A stretch of DNA of 64,000 nucleotides, taken from positions 5,649 to 69,648 of the forward strand of contig DYKN01000013.1 in the NCBI GenBank assembly GCA_020722575.1, written 5' to 3'. Below, piece after piece: positions 42,194 to 49,388 of this stretch. The notes beneath the pieces are model-generated. The model was not told the origin of the DNA. It did no database searches and saw nothing but the letters and a program-made list of their open reading frames with translations. The DNA is from Rikenella microfusus (GTDB taxonomy: Bacteria > Bacteroidota > Bacteroidia > Bacteroidales > VadinHA17). The translations under genes and the position numbers were made by a program. The first letter of the stretch is position 1; every line of letters begins with the position of its first letter.

Positions 42194-44230
42194 CTAATTT
42201 TCTGTTTTTTGTACATCAAGCTTCATTCTGCATTTATTAGCACTATTTATCAACTTGGGGTTCTGAGGGTCTATTTTTAGCCCCCTTTCCCACTCTTTTA
42301 ACGCATTTACATAGTCTCCATTCATATAAAAACTTACACCCTTCAGATAAAACTGGTTAACCTGAATCTCCTTGTCACTCATTCGTCCTTGGTCAGTGAG
42401 TACTGATGTCTCTTCTTGATATTTTTTTCTAAGGTTTATCTTATTCAGATTCATGATGGCTTTTAACCGATATGTATTACGTGGTGAATTGTCTTGTAAG
42501 ACTTTTTCCCACTCCTTTTTAGCCAAGTCGATTTTGCCTTCAGAATAATAGACAAGCCCCTTTTCATAGGCTTGACGAAGTGTTTCAAGGGGAATAACGA
42601 TAGCTGGGGGATTCAGTCTCTCTTCTATCTTTTCTAGATAATCCTCAACATTCTTATACCCCTGTCGGATCGACATGACCAACGTAAATGATTTTTTTGA
42701 ATTCGCATAATCCCGGTTATGATATTGGAGGATTCCAGTATCATAATGGCTTTGAAGAAATGATTCCACTTTTTCCGGTTCCAGCATCAGAGTATTCTTT
42801 ACAAGCAAGTCTCTTGACAATTTGTTATTTGGAAACAATAATAATATCTTCTCTAGATAAGACATTGATGTTTGATAGTCCCCTTTATTGAAAAATGCGA
42901 TTGAATCAAAGTAAAGTTTCATGACGATTTCATAATAGGGTGAATCATCATCAATCTCTTCCTGACTTCGTGAAAAGAGCACTTCTTTTGCCTTATCCAG
43001 GTATTCCTTCGCATATATGTTTTCTGGATCTAAATCAAGACACCTGCTCAATTCAAATATGGCATTCTTATACTCACCTACCTGATAAAAAGTTATACCG
43101 CTGTTCAAGTATTCAAGAATCTTGTCCTGTTGTTCCTGTATTTTTTTGGCTCGTTCCTCGTTTATCCTGTCTTGTATGAGTGTAAGATACTTGTTAACGT
43201 CCTTATAATTGCTGTTCAATGAAATAACATTCATGAAATTTTCACGGCTTTTCTGGTAATTTCTAGCATTATAACTTATGACACCTTGAGAATAAAACCC
43301 TTCCAGTTGTGCTCGGAAGATCTCCTGCTGCTTTAAAGAATCATAATGTGCCAATATTCTTGCCTTATAATCAGAAGCGATATCGTCCTGCGGATTTAAT
43401 ACAAGGATCTCATTGAATGCATCCAATGATTCCCCATACTTCTGTTCATTGAACAATCTGACAGCATTGGACATCATCAGTGTCATTTTTTGAAGCTGGA
43501 GCATTTCACTACGTAAGCGGTTTGCTTGTTGCAACAAATCACGAGCCTCCTGAAAATCCGGTGTTAATCCAAGCACATAATTCAACTCTTCAATTGCAAA
43601 ATCCGGTTTCCTCTGTTCAAGAAAAGCCCGTCCCTGTTCAAGATGACGGTCAATCTCCGCCAGCCTTTCCTGTTCATCGATCAACGCTTTGAGTTTATGG
43701 ACCTTTTCCATAACTGTAATATTGTCAGGAGCTAATACAAGCACTGTCCTATATTTTTCAAGTGCTGCAAGATATTCCTTCTGCTGATAAAGACGATCAC
43801 CTTCTTCTTCACGTTTTTGTACAAGGATTTCCTTGTTAATACGTTCAAGCTGTTTTTTCGATTTTTCTATATATTCCTTTGCTGTTGCATCATAAGGTGT
43901 TTCCTGCAAAACACTGTTAAAAATGACAATCGCTTCTGGATAATTTTTTTCTTTATAATAGTCCAGACCTTTCATAAGTAGTCTCTGTTTTGAAAGGATC
44001 CTGTCATAGGCTTTTCTATAATAGTTTTTCAGTTTTATATCTACATATCCATAGTTATCAATAAGCTGATCCCATTCCTGTACTGCCTTGATATATTCCT
44101 TGTTATTAAAATATTCCAGACCTTTAATAAAAATAGCATTGATTTGGGATCTGTCAGGTTCATTCTGCATGGCTGATAGTACAAACGCGGTTAGTATCAT
44201 AAATATGGTTAAAAGTGACTTATAGTTCAT
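42194..44230 (-). CDS. Large exported multi-TPR protein
   Basis: Signal peptide; many (Y/F)xxGxxYYxxxxYxxAxxxW/F TPR units joined by coiled segments; start overlaps the upstream stop (ATGA). Confidence 0.88.
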   Translation of the reverse strand: MNYKSLLTIFMILTAFVLSAMQNEPDRSQINAIFIKGLEYFNNKEYIKAVQEWDQLIDNYGYVDIKLKNYYRKAYDRILSKQRLLMKGLDYYKEKNYPEAIVIFNSVLQETPYDATAKEYIEKSKKQLERINKEILVQKREEEGDRLYQQKEYLAALEKYRTVLVLAPDNITVMEKVHKLKALIDEQERLAEIDRHLEQGRAFLEQRKPDFAIEELNYVLGLTPDFQEARDLLQQANRLRSEMLQLQKMTLMMSNAVRLFNEQKYGESLDAFNEILVLNPQDDIASDYKARILAHYDSLKQQEIFRAQLEGFYSQGVISYNARNYQKSRENFMNVISLNSNYKDVNKYLTLIQDRINEERAKKIQEQQDKILEYLNSGITFYQVGEYKNAIFELSRCLDLDPENIYAKEYLDKAKEVLFSRSQEEIDDDSPYYEIVMKLYFDSIAFFNKGDYQTSMSYLEKILLLFPNNKLSRDLLVKNTLMLEPEKVESFLQSHYDTGILQYHNRDYANSKKSFTLVMSIRQGYKNVEDYLEKIEERLNPPAIVIPLETLRQAYEKGLVYYSEGKIDLAKKEWEKVLQDNSPRNTYRLKAIMNLNKINLRKKYQEETSVLTDQGRMSDKEIQVNQFYLKGVSFYMNGDYVNALKEWERGLKIDPQNPKLINSANKCRMKLDVQKTEN

Positions 44231-45435
44231 TTTTTAATATTCTTGAGTATATCTTCGGCGTCTTTTACCTTTTTCTGAATAACCTTGTTTTCAGGATCAA
44301 TGGTCAAAGCTTTATTCCATTCCAGTATGGCCTTCTCAAATTCTTCCTGGACGAAATAGGACAATCCTTTATAATAATGAAGTTCTATCAACTTCTGTTG
44401 GTTTGGGTTTAATCCACTGATCGTCTCAAAGAGATCGAATTTAGTATTGACAGAGAAATTGTTTACAGAATTGAATACTGCATAAGGTGAATAGACATAA
44501 TCCACATGTGTATCAAAACCTTTAAACCGATAACGGATCCCTACTCCTGCAGTAAAAAAATTGAGATCATATCCAAGTTTAAACCCACATCGGACAAATA
44601 CAAGGTCTCTAAAAACATATTCTACTCCAGCGTTCAGCCTATAATCAAGGTCAATAACACTTCTGATATTATAGAGGTATTTGTTCAGATCCAGTGTCGC
44701 ATAAAGGCTATGATGTTGGTTTCCAGTGCCTTCCATTCCTATCAAAACAGGATAATAAAGACCTGCCTTTAATTTCAGAGGAACGATATCCGTATATGCT
44801 TTTGTTGATATGTTTTGCAGGGCTATCCCCACCTTGACATTGTTCAAAGATAACCATTTATTTGGGAAATATGGAATTTTGAGGTTCTTAACAAAAAACT
44901 GGGTTCCTAAATCAGCTGCAAAAGCATTGATCTTCAAATCATTGATTCCTAAGACACCCCATTTCAGCTGCATCCCTACTGAATACTGTTTCAACCGCAT
45001 AGCATAGGCAAGATTGATGACTGAACTTCCAAAATCCACAGTACCATCAGGGTAGCCATATTTGTCATAATTAATGAAAGGTGCTAAATGAAGGAATGTC
45101 CAACTACCTCCCATTGTACCTTTCACCCTACCAAATTTCACTGGCTGGGCATACGCCAGGTATTCTACTGAAGTATCATCAAACCAGTCGAGATGTACAA
45201 AGGCTGCCTGATTCCTGTTCAATGGAACAAGTCCTGCGGGATTGGAGGTCAGTCCCGTCACGTCTTCAGCAGCTGCACAATAAGCGCCTCCTAACCCATT
45301 CACCCTGCTATTCAATTCAAATTGGAATAGGTTCATACCGTCTGTACCGGCAAAATCCGTAAGACTGCCAGTCGCAAAAAGTTGTGGTAAACATGTTAGT
45401 AAAACGGTTATGTAGGCGAGCGTTAAAAGTCTCAT
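44227..45435 (-). CDS. PorV/PorQ-like (UPF0164/FadL-type) outer-membrane beta-barrel with C-terminal TPR
   Basis: Signal peptide; RVNGLGGAY.A.AED..L..NPAGL hatch motif; amphipathic strands (AGVEY, GVGIRY, VDYVY); terminal TPR. Confidence 0.85.
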   Translation of the reverse strand: MRLLTLAYITVLLTCLPQLFATGSLTDFAGTDGMNLFQFELNSRVNGLGGAYCAAAEDVTGLTSNPAGLVPLNRNQAAFVHLDWFDDTSVEYLAYAQPVKFGRVKGTMGGSWTFLHLAPFINYDKYGYPDGTVDFGSSVINLAYAMRLKQYSVGMQLKWGVLGINDLKINAFAADLGTQFFVKNLKIPYFPNKWLSLNNVKVGIALQNISTKAYTDIVPLKLKAGLYYPVLIGMEGTGNQHHSLYATLDLNKYLYNIRSVIDLDYRLNAGVEYVFRDLVFVRCGFKLGYDLNFFTAGVGIRYRFKGFDTHVDYVYSPYAVFNSVNNFSVNTKFDLFETISGLNPNQQKLIELHYYKGLSYFVQEEFEKAILEWNKALTIDPENKVIQKKVKDAEDILKNIKK

Positions 45436-46745
45436 TTGATGATAATCACCTTCCTAACTTGATTGACATCTTTAGCTCGAATTGTAACAAAATACATACC
45501 GACAGCAACAGTCATTCCAGCATGGTTTTTACCATCCCAAAGAATTGGTCCGTATTTACCTGGTTCTTTCACACCTTCATCATACCGTCTGACAAGATCA
45601 CCCTTGAGGTCATAGATATCAATTCGTACACGTCCTTTTTTCACAACCTCATAAAGAATATTTATGTTCTGATCAATACGCAAATCAAGAATAGTTGGGA
45701 ATACATTGAAATTTTGACCTTGGTCTGGCCGTTGTTTAATCTGGTACATGTAAGGTGTTCCAGCATTGTCATAAACAACATGATCTACTGAAACTATGAA
45801 TTTGACAGTTTCACCATCCTTGAATTCAGAATCATTGGCGGGTATCAGACCTTGCCAAGTCATACCGTTCCAAGACAGTTTAACAGCACGATCGTTCATA
45901 TTTGGTCCATAAGCACCATCTGGATTCTCTGAGACATCATAATATATCCAGACATTGTCTGCATCTTTCGGGTCTCTATCAAGTGTTACATTCACAAGAA
46001 TATCCGAAGCATTTAGGAACTGACTTCCTCCAAAATCCGTTATCAATTTCATTCCATCGTTCGCAGTTACAGCCTTCACAGCATTTGTAGGAGCATAAGT
46101 TATGATTGTGTTTGTAATCCATCGGACATAATTACTCATTACGTTCGAACGGACTGTCTTCACCTCGATAACAACCCTGTTGGTAATGCCGATGGGAGCA
46201 GAAGGCGGCACACTCACCTGGAGGAAACAGGTGAAGAGGTCGCCTTCGCCCAATGCCGGCGTATTGGTGATCCTGATATCACCAGCGTCAAAGGTTCCAT
46301 TGTCATTCGTATCACCATAGACAGCAGTCGTCATGTTCGTAACCATATTGGATACGACACGCACGCGGAATATGTCTGAATAATTGTTGGATGACTGGAT
46401 ATCAAAGGGAAGTGAAGAGACAGAACCTATGACAGCATAAGAGGTTGTCGAGGTTACGTTGAACTGAACGAAATCTGAAACGACATTGGTAGCATAGGCC
46501 GATGTCGAATACCCCGTACCAGCAAGGTTTGAATAAACCGCAGTTACGGTATTCGTCAGACCTGTTCCGGAAGGAGTCTTAGCCATTAGTGCGGAGTCCG
46601 CCATGAGTAATGCCAGAAGGAACATTACACCTGTCACACTCGGACGTAACCGTCCAAATATCCAGGACTTCACTGAGGAGCCAAGATTGAATAAACTGGT
46701 TGCAAGGGCTTCAGTGACTATGGGAATACGTTTAAGTATACCCAT
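45432..46745 (-). CDS. Secreted Ig-like protein with C-terminal FlgD-Ig/T9SS type-A-like sorting domain
   Basis: Extended signal peptide; TNTVTAVY N-terminal segment; DTNDNGTFDAGD Ca-binding-like loop; C-terminal IYDLKGDLVR..WDGKN..G.Y....KVIIIK. Confidence 0.82.
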   Translation of the reverse strand: MGILKRIPIVTEALATSLFNLGSSVKSWIFGRLRPSVTGVMFLLALLMADSALMAKTPSGTGLTNTVTAVYSNLAGTGYSTSAYATNVVSDFVQFNVTSTTSYAVIGSVSSLPFDIQSSNNYSDIFRVRVVSNMVTNMTTAVYGDTNDNGTFDAGDIRITNTPALGEGDLFTCFLQVSVPPSAPIGITNRVVIEVKTVRSNVMSNYVRWITNTIITYAPTNAVKAVTANDGMKLITDFGGSQFLNASDILVNVTLDRDPKDADNVWIYYDVSENPDGAYGPNMNDRAVKLSWNGMTWQGLIPANDSEFKDGETVKFIVSVDHVVYDNAGTPYMYQIKQRPDQGQNFNVFPTILDLRIDQNINILYEVVKKGRVRIDIYDLKGDLVRRYDEGVKEPGKYGPILWDGKNHAGMTVAVGMYFVTIRAKDVNQVRKVIIIK

Positions 46746-46942
46746 GAACTCTCACCTTTGGTTTTAGATTATGTCAGGAAAGTGCATTATCATGGGGAAA
46801 GGGAATAACACTGGTACTACTGTTATAGTAAGATTCATAAATAATAAATCTACTTATAGTCTTGGATAAAAATGCGAGTATCAAAAAATGTTATTGTGGC
46901 AGATACAAATGCAAGTAAAGTGTATGAACTCCCTTATGTTCC

Positions 46943-46962
46943 CCGGATAAACAACTATCCGG
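46943..46962 (-). terminator. Stem-loop in the 3' region of the DUF11 gene (partial terminator or stabiliser)
   Basis: CCGGATAG-TTGT-TTATCCGG hairpin without a strong U tract; small hairpins nearby. Confidence 0.45.
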
Positions 46963-46995
46963 ACAAAGTCATGAAATCTCCTAAGTTTTTAGGTA

Positions 46996-48057
46996 TTATT
47001 TCACTCGGACCTTGTACATAAGGGTGCCTTTTGCGCTTCCAGGGATATTGGAGCTATAACTGAAAACTACAGAGCCTGAATTTGCGGAACCAGTCAAACC
47101 ATAGTTTTTAGCTAAAGATTTAATTGGTGTTGAGCCATCATCAGCAAGGACTTTTCCAGCATCAAAAGCAGTCTTATATGATATGAAATAGTCAGATGTT
47201 ATCTTCACATCATTGGTATATGCGAGCGATCCGGAAACAAAGTCAAAGACTGTTGTATTGATGGGATCAGAGAAACTGAGATGCTTGACAAAACCAGATC
47301 CGGCATTGGTCCATGTGATTACATAGACAATTTCTGAACCTGGAACAACATCTTTCCAGTGGGCGCCTGCAGCCAGAGCCATGAAAGAGGCAGAGTTGGT
47401 AACTTCCGATCTCTTTGAAATCACTATGCTCGGTGCCTGAACTATAGCAATAGCAATTCCATTTGTGATGAAATCACGTCCACCAAAAATGGTTGTGCCG
47501 TTCATGCTGGTATAGGCTGTCAGACCGGAGAGAGCACCATAGACACTGTTATAGACACCTGCATTGCTGATCTGTGATCCCCAAATGTTGGTTGAAGATT
47601 CGCCATCAACTGCAGCAGCATCAGCTCTCATATAAAGATAAAAAGTCTGGAAATCATCTTCAGCAAGAGTGAAGGATTTGAAAGCTCCACCACTTGTACT
47701 GACATTTGTATAGAAATTGTAGTACCAAGAATGAGTACCAACAGTAGCAATCCTGTAGTTGGACAATGCAATGACCACAGAAGTGTTACCACGGTTGGTA
47801 ACAGACATCATAAATGTTGTTCCTGCACCAGGAGCAACATATTTTACGGCATAATTGCTATAATCTGACTTCAGACCATAGATGGCATTGACTGTATTTG
47901 TTTCATAGGCCTTATTTGAATAAGGTGTATTCCCCAAATTGGAATAAATGGCTGTTACAGTATTTGTAACACCAACTCCTGCAGCGGTTCCAGAGGCATG
48001 CAATGCCATCGGAATAAATAGAAAAAGCGCCATAAGCGCGGTAATGATTCTTTTCAT
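46996..48057 (-). CDS. Secreted DUF11-containing Ig-fold protein, candidate major fibre subunit
   Basis: AAGGAG SD before ATG 48057; Sec signal MKRIITALMALFLFIPMALHA; DUF11 signature IVISK...VVPGSEIVYVITWTNAG...FSDP; ends LMYKVRVK. Confidence 0.85.
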   Translation of the reverse strand: MKRIITALMALFLFIPMALHASGTAAGVGVTNTVTAIYSNLGNTPYSNKAYETNTVNAIYGLKSDYSNYAVKYVAPGAGTTFMMSVTNRGNTSVVIALSNYRIATVGTHSWYYNFYTNVSTSGGAFKSFTLAEDDFQTFYLYMRADAAAVDGESSTNIWGSQISNAGVYNSVYGALSGLTAYTSMNGTTIFGGRDFITNGIAIAIVQAPSIVISKRSEVTNSASFMALAAGAHWKDVVPGSEIVYVITWTNAGSGFVKHLSFSDPINTTVFDFVSGSLAYTNDVKITSDYFISYKTAFDAGKVLADDGSTPIKSLAKNYGLTGSANSGSVVFSYSSNIPGSAKGTLMYKVRVK

Positions 48058-48249
48058 GACTGACTCCTTGTTTTTATTTTTTTGTGAAATGTCGTAAATC
48101 TCGTTCCTCTTCAGATGTTTCTCTTTACTTTTCATTTTGATGTACCTCTTATTGATTTTTTTTCAGGTTCGGAATCGGTGGTCAACCTTTATGACCTTGC
48201 AACCTCCTTAGTTTCAGAATATGGCCAAGCAGAATCCTATCACCTCCTT

Positions 48250-49359
48250 TTATGGAAAAATCTTAATCTCATGTATTTGGATAAAATTCCATTTGCCGTG
48301 TTTTGAAAAATACTTGGACTTTATAGCTGTTAACCTCACATAACGGCCTTCTTTTGTTGGAAACTGGATCTCCTGCACTTTAACAGGTGTGCCGGACATG
48401 TAAGTCCGAGGGACCTTATCCGCATCAAGTTGGGAAGCAATAGTCTTCCATACCTTTAAATCCTCACTGATTTCAACATTATATTCGGTGCTATAAGCCA
48501 AAGCACGCCAGATAACAATGACTTTGGAGATCTTCGTCTTTTTACCAAGATCTATTATAATCTGTTGGTTGTTGGAACGAATATCGCCAGAAACGGACAT
48601 CCCTTTGAAATAGTCCACTCGACCATCAGTAATACGCTGAAGGGAATTCGGACTCATATCAAAAAGTCCATCTTCATAAACATAATTGGTAAAAGTCCCT
48701 GATACGGTTTTTCCCAAGGCAAGATTATCTTCCAATGTCGAAAAAGACTTGATTTCTGTATTGTTAGTAATATTGTCTTTGTTCACTATCTGGATGAAAT
48801 AGTAATATCTACTTGAAGGTTTTAATCCTGAAATAAGAAACTCACCAGAAGCCGTTTCTTCCATGGGTATCACATTACGATTAATCTCACCCTCTTTGAC
48901 ATAAATAAGTGATGATAGGACTGCTGCGTTCGCCTCCCACTTGATACGAACATATTCCTTACTTTGGCTTGATACTTCATTCTTTGTGATAACTGGAAGT
49001 GGATTCCCCGCTGTTAAAAAGGTCTTAATCCCTGATTTTACAACTACAGGCTTGTTTGCTTTATACTGGAAATTACAAGATATTTCGTAATAATAAACTG
49101 TCCCTTTTTGAAGATTATTGAGAAGAATCTGATGGTTGATTGCTTCACCAATACTAAATGCTTGGTTATGTAATCGAGCCGAATCTTCTCCATAGGCTAC
49201 ACTTCCAGTGGAAAGTTGGTCTGTTTTCCACTTGATAATAACATAATTTTCAGTGATATTGGTCACCACTGAATAAATCAACTTGTCCGCATTTAAATAT
49301 GATGCAAATACAAATGCCAGTATATATAGAATAAATGCGGTTCTTACGAGCTTGGCCAT
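48250..49359 (-). CDS. Secreted protein with two FN3-like domains and an F5/8 (discoidin) domain
   Basis: IKWKTD..STGSVAYG..H..LL.NL..GTVYYY (two copies), NLALGK, IIIDLG, GRYVRL, IHEIKIF. The GAGGTG SD favours ATG 49359. Confidence 0.85.
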   Translation of the reverse strand: MAKLVRTAFILYILAFVFASYLNADKLIYSVVTNITENYVIIKWKTDQLSTGSVAYGEDSARLHNQAFSIGEAINHQILLNNLQKGTVYYYEISCNFQYKANKPVVVKSGIKTFLTAGNPLPVITKNEVSSQSKEYVRIKWEANAAVLSSLIYVKEGEINRNVIPMEETASGEFLISGLKPSSRYYYFIQIVNKDNITNNTEIKSFSTLEDNLALGKTVSGTFTNYVYEDGLFDMSPNSLQRITDGRVDYFKGMSVSGDIRSNNQQIIIDLGKKTKISKVIVIWRALAYSTEYNVEISEDLKVWKTIASQLDADKVPRTYMSGTPVKVQEIQFPTKEGRYVRLTAIKSKYFSKHGKWNFIQIHEIKIFP

Positions 49360-49388
49360 ACTCATAATCACCTCACATAACTAAAACA

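Follow-up and report, generated by a model that had tools for sequence, protein, structure and literature searches.

A Shared N-Terminal Hairpin and a Truncated DUF11 Domain Suggest a Donor-Hairpin Fibre with a Donor-Only Anchor in Rikenella microfusus

Here, we describe two adjacent genes in a 64,000-nt window of Rikenella microfusus DNA (GenBank assembly GCA_020722575.1, contig DYKN01000013.1, positions 5,649 to 69,648 of the forward strand), the products of which share an N-terminal β-hairpin and may assemble into a surface fibre. All coordinates are positions in this window, the whole stretch that was analysed, and ProtA and ProtB are the names given to the products of 46996-48057 and 45432-46745. 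The minus strand carries a head-to-tail series of four genes, which encode ProtA, ProtB, a PorV/PorQ-like outer-membrane barrel and a tetratricopeptide repeat (TPR) protein, with a gap of 250 nt between ProtA and ProtB. Their genomic surroundings are chromosomal housekeeping genes, including metG, ligA, uvrA, ftsH and the gene for a penicillin-binding protein. The organism's own genome (3.45 Mb, 97.8% complete; 21,242 open reading frames [ORFs] of ≥50 aa) was used for the whole-genome searches. ProtA, ProtB and their parts were delimited as follows.

46996..48057, minus strand: ProtA, proposed shaft subunit, 353 aa (AGGAG-N7-ATG start; five relatives, 37-58% identity)
47995..48057, minus strand: ProtA signal peptide, residues 1-21 (...ALHA/SG), with no lipobox Cys (sequence reading; AlphaFold2 [AF2] helix 2-13)
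47884..47991, minus strand: ProtA putative donor β-hairpin, residues 23-58; N32 codon 47962-47964 (AF2 strands 29-39 and 45-55; predicted local distance difference test [pLDDT], 72-83)
47434..47883, minus strand: ProtA domain 1, residues 59-208, immunoglobulin (Ig)-like sandwich plus connector (VIA-align structural matches)
46999..47433, minus strand: ProtA C-terminal truncated DUF11/CLIPPER domain, putative acceptor, residues 209-353; K215 codon 47413-47415, D264 codon 47266-47268
45432..46745, minus strand: ProtB, proposed donor-only terminator/anchor subunit, 437 aa (ORF; relatives P0008-P0012)
46476..46580, minus strand: ProtB putative donor hairpin, residues 56-90; N65 codon 46551-46553 (21/33 identical to the ProtA hairpin)
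45969..46475, minus strand: ProtB domain 1 plus connector, residues 91-259 (homologous to ProtA 59-209)
45711..45968, minus strand: ProtB middle domain, residues 260-345 (conserved in ProtB relatives)
45435..45710, minus strand: ProtB C-terminal FlgD_ig / type IX secretion system (T9SS)-type sorting-like domain, residues 346-437 (profile matches)

The longest ORF form of ProtA begins at 48135, and the public gene call (P0001, 379 aa) uses this upstream ATG; the ATG at 48057 was chosen as the start because a Shine-Dalgarno sequence (AGGAG) precedes it and homologues begin there. Conservation was read from a ProtA-centred alignment of 23 sequences (24-58% identity to ProtA; column counts, n = 21-22).

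An initial annotation, made from the DNA letters and their translations, had aligned the mature N-termini of the two proteins without gaps at 21/33 identical residues (47890-47988 versus 46479-46577), and this alignment was reproduced. The 21 invariant columns all fall within positions 3-35 of the 47 aligned, and BLASTP of ProtA against ProtB returned the hairpin segment as the sole significant match (28/58 identical, E = 6e-9; all others, E > 6). Identity in the hairpin is 64%, versus 26% over 184 aligned columns in the remaining paralogous region. The hairpin is kept in all five ProtA relatives (37-58% identity) and in all five ProtB relatives that share the protein body. A hidden Markov model (HMM) of the hairpin matched only ProtA and ProtB among the 21,242 ORFs (E ≤ 10), and a ProtA-family HMM found only ProtA and the N-terminal half of ProtB in the same genome; because these two models and PF01345 found no others, one DUF11-like acceptor and two hairpins are counted in the genome. 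Searched alone, the two hairpins had no Pfam match.

The AF2 monomer of ProtA (23-sequence alignment) had a pLDDT of 85 and a predicted template modelling score (pTM) of 0.68, with the C-terminal domain (residues 210-353) at a pLDDT of about 90-97. An earlier model from a 6-row alignment was discarded (pLDDT 57; residues 1-75 below 50). Between hairpin and C-terminal domain, residues 58..208 of the model matched WxLIP (9i1y_B; VIA-align Z = 9.8, root-mean-square deviation 2.9 over 112 aa), PapD-like/ASH domains, MG-type Ig domains and Caf1M (Z = 8.0). The PapD-like resemblance of domain 1 (Z = 8-9) is generic Ig similarity. These structural matches start at residues 58-61 and leave the hairpin outside. 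Foldseek and VIA-align gave generic multi-Ig matches; 9IFR, the crystal structure of a CLIPPER domain, was absent among the matches listed, which is uninformative on the fold. A sequence search of the PDB with the family profile gave no matches at E ≤ 1.

Assignment of the C-terminal domain to DUF11, claimed in the initial annotation, held through relatives and only in part for ProtA itself. ProtA scored 22 bits against TIGR01451 (cut-off, 24; E = 1.2e-4) and had no Pfam match, and PF01345 matched nothing in the whole genome. Three relatives pass PF01345 (cut-off, 24.6 bits), namely, P0002 (29.3 bits), P0005 (27.8 bits) and P0006 (32.9 bits), and the ProtA-family profile matched 2582 proteins, mostly giant tandem DUF11 proteins. 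Because its own scores fall under the cut-offs while P0002, P0005 and P0006 pass, ProtA was taken as a divergent DUF11 homologue below threshold.

DUF11 has been renamed CLIPPER, and in crystal structure 9IFR an autocatalytic isopeptide bond joins Lys715 to Asn806, with Asp748 as the catalytic residue (PMC12617251). The earlier premise that DUF11-type domains form Asp-catalysed Lys-Asn bonds, then a prediction, is now experimental (9IFR; PMC12617251). In the canonical repeat P0060, K172, D206 (+34) and N263 (+91) match the spacing of K715, D748 and N806 in 9IFR; because of this match, the reactive Asn was placed in the 'TN' motif that opens the hairpin. In ProtA, IVISK contributes K215 (codon 47413-47415) and FSDP contributes D264 (47266-47268), and ...GTLMYKVRVK is the C-terminal end; motifs and positions agree with the initial annotation. 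K215 is present in 22/22 aligned sequences, the D264 column holds 20 D and 2 E of 22, and N32 is found in 18/21 sequences, with 3 more offset by one alignment column; positions adjoining the triad residues take up to 11 different residues. The counterpart of N32 in ProtB, N65, is invariant (6/6), and no conserved Asn partner was found inside the ProtA C-terminal domain in the 23-sequence alignment. Judged from sequence, the triad appears to be split, with K215 and D264 on the C-terminal domain and the Asn on the N-terminal hairpin.

These results bear on an explanation without any complementation, in which the shared segment would come from a recent duplication or gene conversion of adjacent paralogues and form an ordinary extension of domain 1, and the C-terminal domain would be a form of DUF11 that is short by nature. 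As such an explanation would have it, about 200 residues of ProtA and ProtB are paralogous, ProtA lies under the Pfam thresholds and AF2 folds the C-terminal domain confidently alone in sequence order; yet the hairpin is 64% identical where the rest is 26%, its conservation extends through both families to members of only 24% overall identity, and K215 and D264 persist without an Asn partner in their own domain. Together with structural matches to domain 1 that start after the hairpin and complex controls that scored 0.00 (below), this makes the explanation very unlikely in our judgement.

That the hairpin stands for the missing closing strands, as the initial annotation had suggested, is upheld by the order of elements at tandem junctions and by PF01345 coverage in relative P0077. 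In the tandem DUF11 giants, a match that starts at the hairpin (profile positions 22-34) comes 26-53 aa after the domain core (profile positions 217-276), an arrangement seen in about 27/73 junctions (hand count of the listed rows). Eight relatives of 550-620 aa (family A4) are two copies of a module made of hairpin, domain 1 and DUF11; their first hairpin comes straight after the signal peptide, the second, internal one straight after DUF11 number 1, and they end like ProtA, just past the '...F-V-V' strand of DUF11 number 2. PF01345 covers 2-105/114 in the two-module relative P0077 with the following hairpin included, versus 2-84/114 for its natural C-terminal domain; canonical DUF11 repeats reach 4-105/114. 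By hhalign, ProtA 1-353 aligned end to end with module 1 of A4 (probability 99.7, E = 2e-26), and its last residue falls just ahead of the internal hairpin of the two-module relatives. A contiguous, complete DUF11 domain that includes the Asn-bearing strands is lacking in ProtA, which ends at the point equivalent to that in P0077.

Among 147 representative proteins with profile matches, the hairpin lies in the first 80 residues of 28, and 24 of those 28, of ≤620 aa, end at the truncated strand (by inspection). Because of these counts, 'hairpin first, truncated domain last' was taken as a recurrent architecture. In public records, such relatives go by no more than 'DUF11 domain-containing protein' or 'uncharacterized repeat protein'.

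ProtB carries the hairpin on a different body. By hhalign, its residues 49-259 aligned with ProtA 15-209 (probability 98.1, E = 8e-14), a region that spans hairpin, domain 1 and connector, the match ending where the ProtA CLIPPER domain begins, and the A1 HMM matched ProtB over profile positions 13-198 (E = 2e-7). Because homology covers the hairpin and domain 1 only and other domains follow, ProtB was read as a donor without an acceptor, in agreement with the initial annotation. The middle domain had no confident family in Pfam or NCBIfam (weak LIC10729_fam match, E = 0.058), and residues 372-425 matched FlgD_ig (PF13860; 29.2 bits, cut-off 27).

A complex of ProtA 205-353 (alignment A5, 22 rows) with ProtB 55-95 (A2, 6 rows) was predicted, the heterodimer having been named earlier as a check. 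Cut-out domains were used because a pass could then mean only the hairpin on the acceptor. The ProtB hairpin docked on the ProtA C-terminal domain with ipSAE values of 0.71, 0.67 and 0.71, versus 0.00 for the best of three controls; in the benchmark, the ipSAE mark was reached by 58/80 solved complexes and by 2/110 mismatched pairs. Partner pLDDT was 70-76, and contact agreement between runs was at least 81%. The modelled interface joins ProtA 208-219 (strand A, with K215), 255-267 (the D264 strand), 350 and 352 to ProtB 61-90, and the D264 strand runs antiparallel to ProtB 67-72. K215 was modelled in contact with V67 and A83, and D264 with V67 and T68. The model supports binding of the hairpin by the acceptor.

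We consider it somewhat probable that ProtA and ProtB form a donor-hairpin fibre with a donor-only anchor, a variant of donor-strand 'exchange-and-lock' fibres. As its last domain, ProtA would have a CnaA-like Ig domain of the DUF11/CLIPPER kind that stops two strands short of completion; these strands would be encoded instead at the protein's own mature N-terminus as the 35-aa hairpin. On entering the open C-terminal domain of another ProtA, this hairpin would build a head-to-tail chain, each junction in trans reproducing the cis geometry of the internal junction in two-module relatives. Insertion would bring N32 beside K215 and D264 of the acceptor, and K215-N32 ligation aided by D264 would probably lock each link covalently. 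ProtB would keep the hairpin and domain 1 and swap the acceptor for another domain and a T9SS-type C-terminal domain (CTD); able to plug a ProtA acceptor and unable to be extended, it would terminate the chain, and its CTD would tie the chain to the cell surface, probably via the adjacent PorV/PorQ-family barrel. The analysis shows sequence homology, architecture, conservation, synteny and, in a controlled prediction, a fit of the ProtB hairpin to the ProtA acceptor; we infer that one ProtA inserts into another in trans and that the link is covalent, as we do the length of the polymer, its direction of growth and its route of export.

Insertion in trans was favoured over insertion in cis because ProtB has a conserved donor with no acceptor and the genome has one acceptor, and because the hairpin-plus-domain-1 unit of fused relatives completes the preceding module rather than its own. 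With closure in cis, the ProtA hairpin would fold into its own CLIPPER domain, possibly with an intramolecular K215-N32 bond, and give a compact, stable monomer and no fibre; the ProtB hairpin would serve otherwise, e.g., by packing on ProtB itself. Triad conservation and covariation cannot separate cis from trans. Closure would be geometrically possible if domain 1 and the CLIPPER domain packed side by side, the connector between them is about 26 aa longer in ProtA than in two-module relatives and could allow a fold-back, and the AF2 monomer places the hairpin somewhere with moderate confidence (pLDDT 72-83, pTM 0.68). Pilins such as TafA have been modelled 'closed' as monomers (PMC11821415). 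Against such a monomer stand the 64%-identical hairpin of ProtB, which has an invariant Asn and no acceptor beside it, the acceptor in ProtA being the sole one in the genome, the open-chain geometry of two-module relatives, in which hairpin and domain 1 complete the CLIPPER domain of the preceding module, and the docking of the ProtB hairpin on the ProtA acceptor (0.71 versus 0.00 for controls). We regard closure in cis as rather unlikely.

Of the two remaining genes of the cluster, the first encodes the barrel of the proposed mooring.

44227..45435, minus strand: PorV/PorQ-family outer-membrane barrel plus C-terminal TPR (start overlaps the ProtB stop by 4 nt; NF033709)
42194..44230, minus strand: TPR-repeat protein (TPR_2, E = 5.8e-36; start overlaps the end of the PorV/PorQ-like gene by 4 nt)

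The 4-nt overlaps make translational coupling of the ProtB, PorV/PorQ-like and TPR genes probable. The product of 44227-45435 scored 113.3 bits against NF033709 (cut-off, 90; residues 32-333) and was placed in the PorV/PorQ family; the PorQ (E = 5e-13) and PorV (E = 1.4e-6) models both fell below their equivalog cut-offs. The genome encodes a T9SS, with SprA (2697 bits, C26:69624-76853) and 20 type-A CTD matches. The C-terminus of ProtB gave a weak match to that of PorZ (NF052228, E = 7.6e-5), and the pairing of PorQ with PorZ is an analogy for mooring of the ProtB CTD to a PorQ-like barrel. Whether the TPR protein of 42194-44230 is part of the system is uncertain.

With only a Sec signal, ProtA would need to ride on ProtB, or some other route, for export. 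This opens a third explanation, a 1:1 pair in which the ProtB hairpin captures one ProtA, covalently or not, and carries it through the T9SS to the surface, the hairpin of ProtA being free or removed. The division of export signals (Sec only in ProtA, a CTD-like domain in ProtB) fits such carriage, as do the modelled contact of the ProtB hairpin with the ProtA acceptor, the adjacency of the genes and their conserved synteny. A partnerless ProtA hairpin would not explain why that hairpin, Asn included, is as conserved as the one in ProtB, and fused-module relatives show repeated chaining as the natural geometry of the family; we hold a 1:1 pair to be distinctly unlikely.

Several results weigh against the donor-hairpin fibre itself. 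In the complex model, the K215-N65 pair was not among the 25 lowest-error contacts, the modelled acceptor had no competing cis hairpin and the alignments were shallow (22 and 6 rows); the docking score may reflect likeness to intact CnaA-like domains already seen by the model. The C-terminal domain has about eight strands at a pLDDT of >90 with no hairpin in sequence order (AF2), and from this model ProtA's domain might be stable alone. Cognate A/B hairpin pairs show no clear excess of similarity, sharing 21, 15 and 12 of 35 residues, versus 11-19 for non-cognate pairs (n = 3 pairs). ProtA lacks both a T9SS CTD and a lipobox and offers no evident means of crossing the outer membrane. The CTD of ProtB lies below the cut-offs of TIGR04183 (20.5 versus 23 bits) and PF18962 (21.3 versus 27 bits, E = 3.3e-4), and ProtB is missing from the 20 CTD matches of the genome. 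A scan of 400 other genomes of the phylum gave only distant matches to the N-terminus or the core, with no orthologue among them.

Conservation of the gene order was seen at two other loci. L014, a metagenome contig, has three genes in the order of the window: A-like (41% identity), B-like with hairpin and CTD (41%, E = 1e-105) and PorV/PorQ-like with TPR (37%, E = 6e-95). In L015, a B-like gene comes after an A-like one. The TPR protein of the 42194-44230 type is not conserved at that position in L014. No relative of the locus was found in species-representative genomes, and because of this result and that for the 400 phylum genomes the comparative depth is small. L014 also shares the C-terminal TPR fusion of the PorV/PorQ-like barrel; for ProtB, the weak resemblance of its CTD is to the retained CTD of PorZ.

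Further observations concern the immediate neighbourhood. An inverted repeat (CCGGATA-N6-TATCCGG; 46943-46962, minus strand) lies 34-53 nt past the ProtA stop, within the 250-nt gap before ProtB, and could serve, as an attenuating terminator, to keep the ratio of shaft to anchor high. It has no T-run and hence fell outside the listing of the consensus terminator scan; the promoter and terminator scans found nothing beyond shuffles (16 sites versus 19.6 expected; 4 versus 3.6). Just upstream of ProtA, the product of 48250-49371 (minus strand) is secreted and combines an F5/8 type C (discoidin) domain (E = 1.2e-13) with two fn3/purple-acid-phosphatase-N-like domains; it has neither hairpin nor CLIPPER domain, and a role such as adhesin of the system is only a possibility.

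Variants of the architecture were seen in other genomes. P0092 (2105 aa; Candidatus Poribacteria by source name) is a giant DUF11 protein with a hairpin directly after the signal peptide and a final strand '...GIVTYRVR', from which the split architecture may extend to very long subunits. Genome G369 has two adjacent paralogous two-module genes (L005:4-1476 and L005:1483-3177), both with a truncated CLIPPER end; Ser replaces Asn in the N-terminal hairpin of the second, and the pair suggests heteropolymers with some non-covalent links. Genome G180, of the same phylum, encodes a 161-aa secreted single DUF11-like domain with no hairpin, Lys or Asp (L016:3747-4232; hhalign to A5, probability 87.5), an 894-aa protein with a hairpin at its start, a truncated CLIPPER end and both Lys and Asp (L016:4245-6929) and a protein of 2397 aa that combines a hairpin-like N-terminus with DUF11, SdrD_B and an OmpA peptidoglycan-binding domain (L017:91-7284; OmpA match, E = 4.4e-22), possibly a second set of tip, shaft and anchor. 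G028 and G108 have proteins of similar length (about 2400 aa) that match profile positions 5-111. A narrow hairpin HMM had no match in the above G180 or G369 proteins at a domain E of <0.1.

The proposed fibre has counterparts in other folds. Shaft subunits of chaperone-usher pili carry an N-terminal donor and an incomplete Ig acceptor, and a terminator (PapH for PapA, FimI for FimA) donates, cannot be extended and anchors. ProtA and ProtB would follow the logic of PapA and PapH and differ by the hairpin donor, the proposed covalent lock and anchoring through a T9SS-type CTD and a PorV/PorQ-like barrel; Pfam and NCBIfam scans of the five genes within 42194-49371 found no usher or PapD chaperone family. 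In SpyTag/SpyCatcher and DogTag/DogCatcher, engineered splits of CnaB-type domains, a peptide or hairpin with one reactive residue reconstitutes an isopeptide domain in trans, covalently; ProtA would instead be split by nature, in a CnaA-like domain, and the split would serve self-polymerisation. In the accounts available to us, strand-exchange fibres with a dedicated anchor or terminator also occur in bacteria with a T9SS, as the type V pili of Bacteroidota (FimA/Mfa1, with anchors FimB/Mfa2). Type V pilins are lipoproteins, processed by a protease, that donate a C-terminal strand. ProtA differs from them in its plain signal peptide and N-terminal donor; there is no Cys at or near the ProtA and ProtB cleavage sites, and no FimA/Mfa family match was found in Pfam or NCBIfam.

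Donor strands are combined with isopeptide bonds in two other systems. In BsaA of Clostridium perfringens (TasA/camelysin), an N-terminal segment enters the β-sheet of the neighbour and an Asn-Lys isopeptide follows, with an acidic catalytic residue; a second paralogue, BsaB, has a possible anchoring role (PMC11580942). BsaA is of an unrelated fold and family, belongs to a Gram-positive system with SipW and donates a single disordered strand, not a preformed two-strand CnaA-like hairpin; neither ProtA nor ProtB had a Peptidase_M73/TasA match (Pfam and NCBIfam, E ≤ 0.1). The archaeal thread Saci_0406 joins head-to-tail donor-strand complementation to inter-subunit isopeptide bonds, formed between the N-terminal amine of Asp24 and Asn57 of subunits n and n+2 (PMC9715654); besides being archaeal, it differs from ProtA, as far as the available text of that report goes, in having no Pfam domain and no Lys-Asp-Asn triad.

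CLIPPER domains occur in cell-surface proteins of Gram-negative bacteria (PMC12617251). ProtA has in common with them, as far as the available text of that survey describes them, a homologous domain core, and it appears to share the strand-A Lys, the 'xxD-P' Asp and the 'TN' Asn, the spacing of which in canonical repeats matches 9IFR. The survey, in the same text, treats only intramolecular bonds in tandem stalk domains (PMC12617251), unlike ProtA, in which the C-terminal end carries Lys and Asp and the Asn strand is N-terminal and present on a second protein as well. No description of a split DUF11/CLIPPER fibre was found in the literature searched; the supplementary tables of PMC12617251 (members with and without the triad), outside the search, might list such terminal domains. 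Mentions of 'DUF11' in the available text of a paper on tafi proved to be DUF1102 (PMC11821415). A donor strand with an isopeptide lock is already known in other folds, and use of a split DUF11/CLIPPER domain for polymerisation is new to the literature searched.

A bolder form of the proposal, which we put forward tentatively and with some doubt, is a natural 'SpyTag/DogTag-like' Gram-negative pilus, in which ProtA, with its split CnaA-like domain, would ligate itself head to tail with no sortase, chaperone or usher, ProtB would terminate the chain and moor it to the PorQ-like barrel via an uncleaved T9SS-type CTD, and the split architecture of at least 24 other representatives would mark a widespread, as yet undescribed class of covalent fibres.

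To our knowledge, isopeptide-bonded Ig domains have so far been described as intramolecular staples, and covalent pili have, as far as we know, been thought to require sortases, a Gram-positive feature. If the donor-hairpin fibre is real, Gram-negative and FCB-type bacteria would be able to build covalent fibres by strand complementation alone, and such fibres would be linked to type IX secretion and its attachment machinery. It would also give a function to a set of proteins annotated only as 'DUF11 domain-containing protein', and the hairpin and acceptor would be natural tag/catcher pairs for protein ligation.

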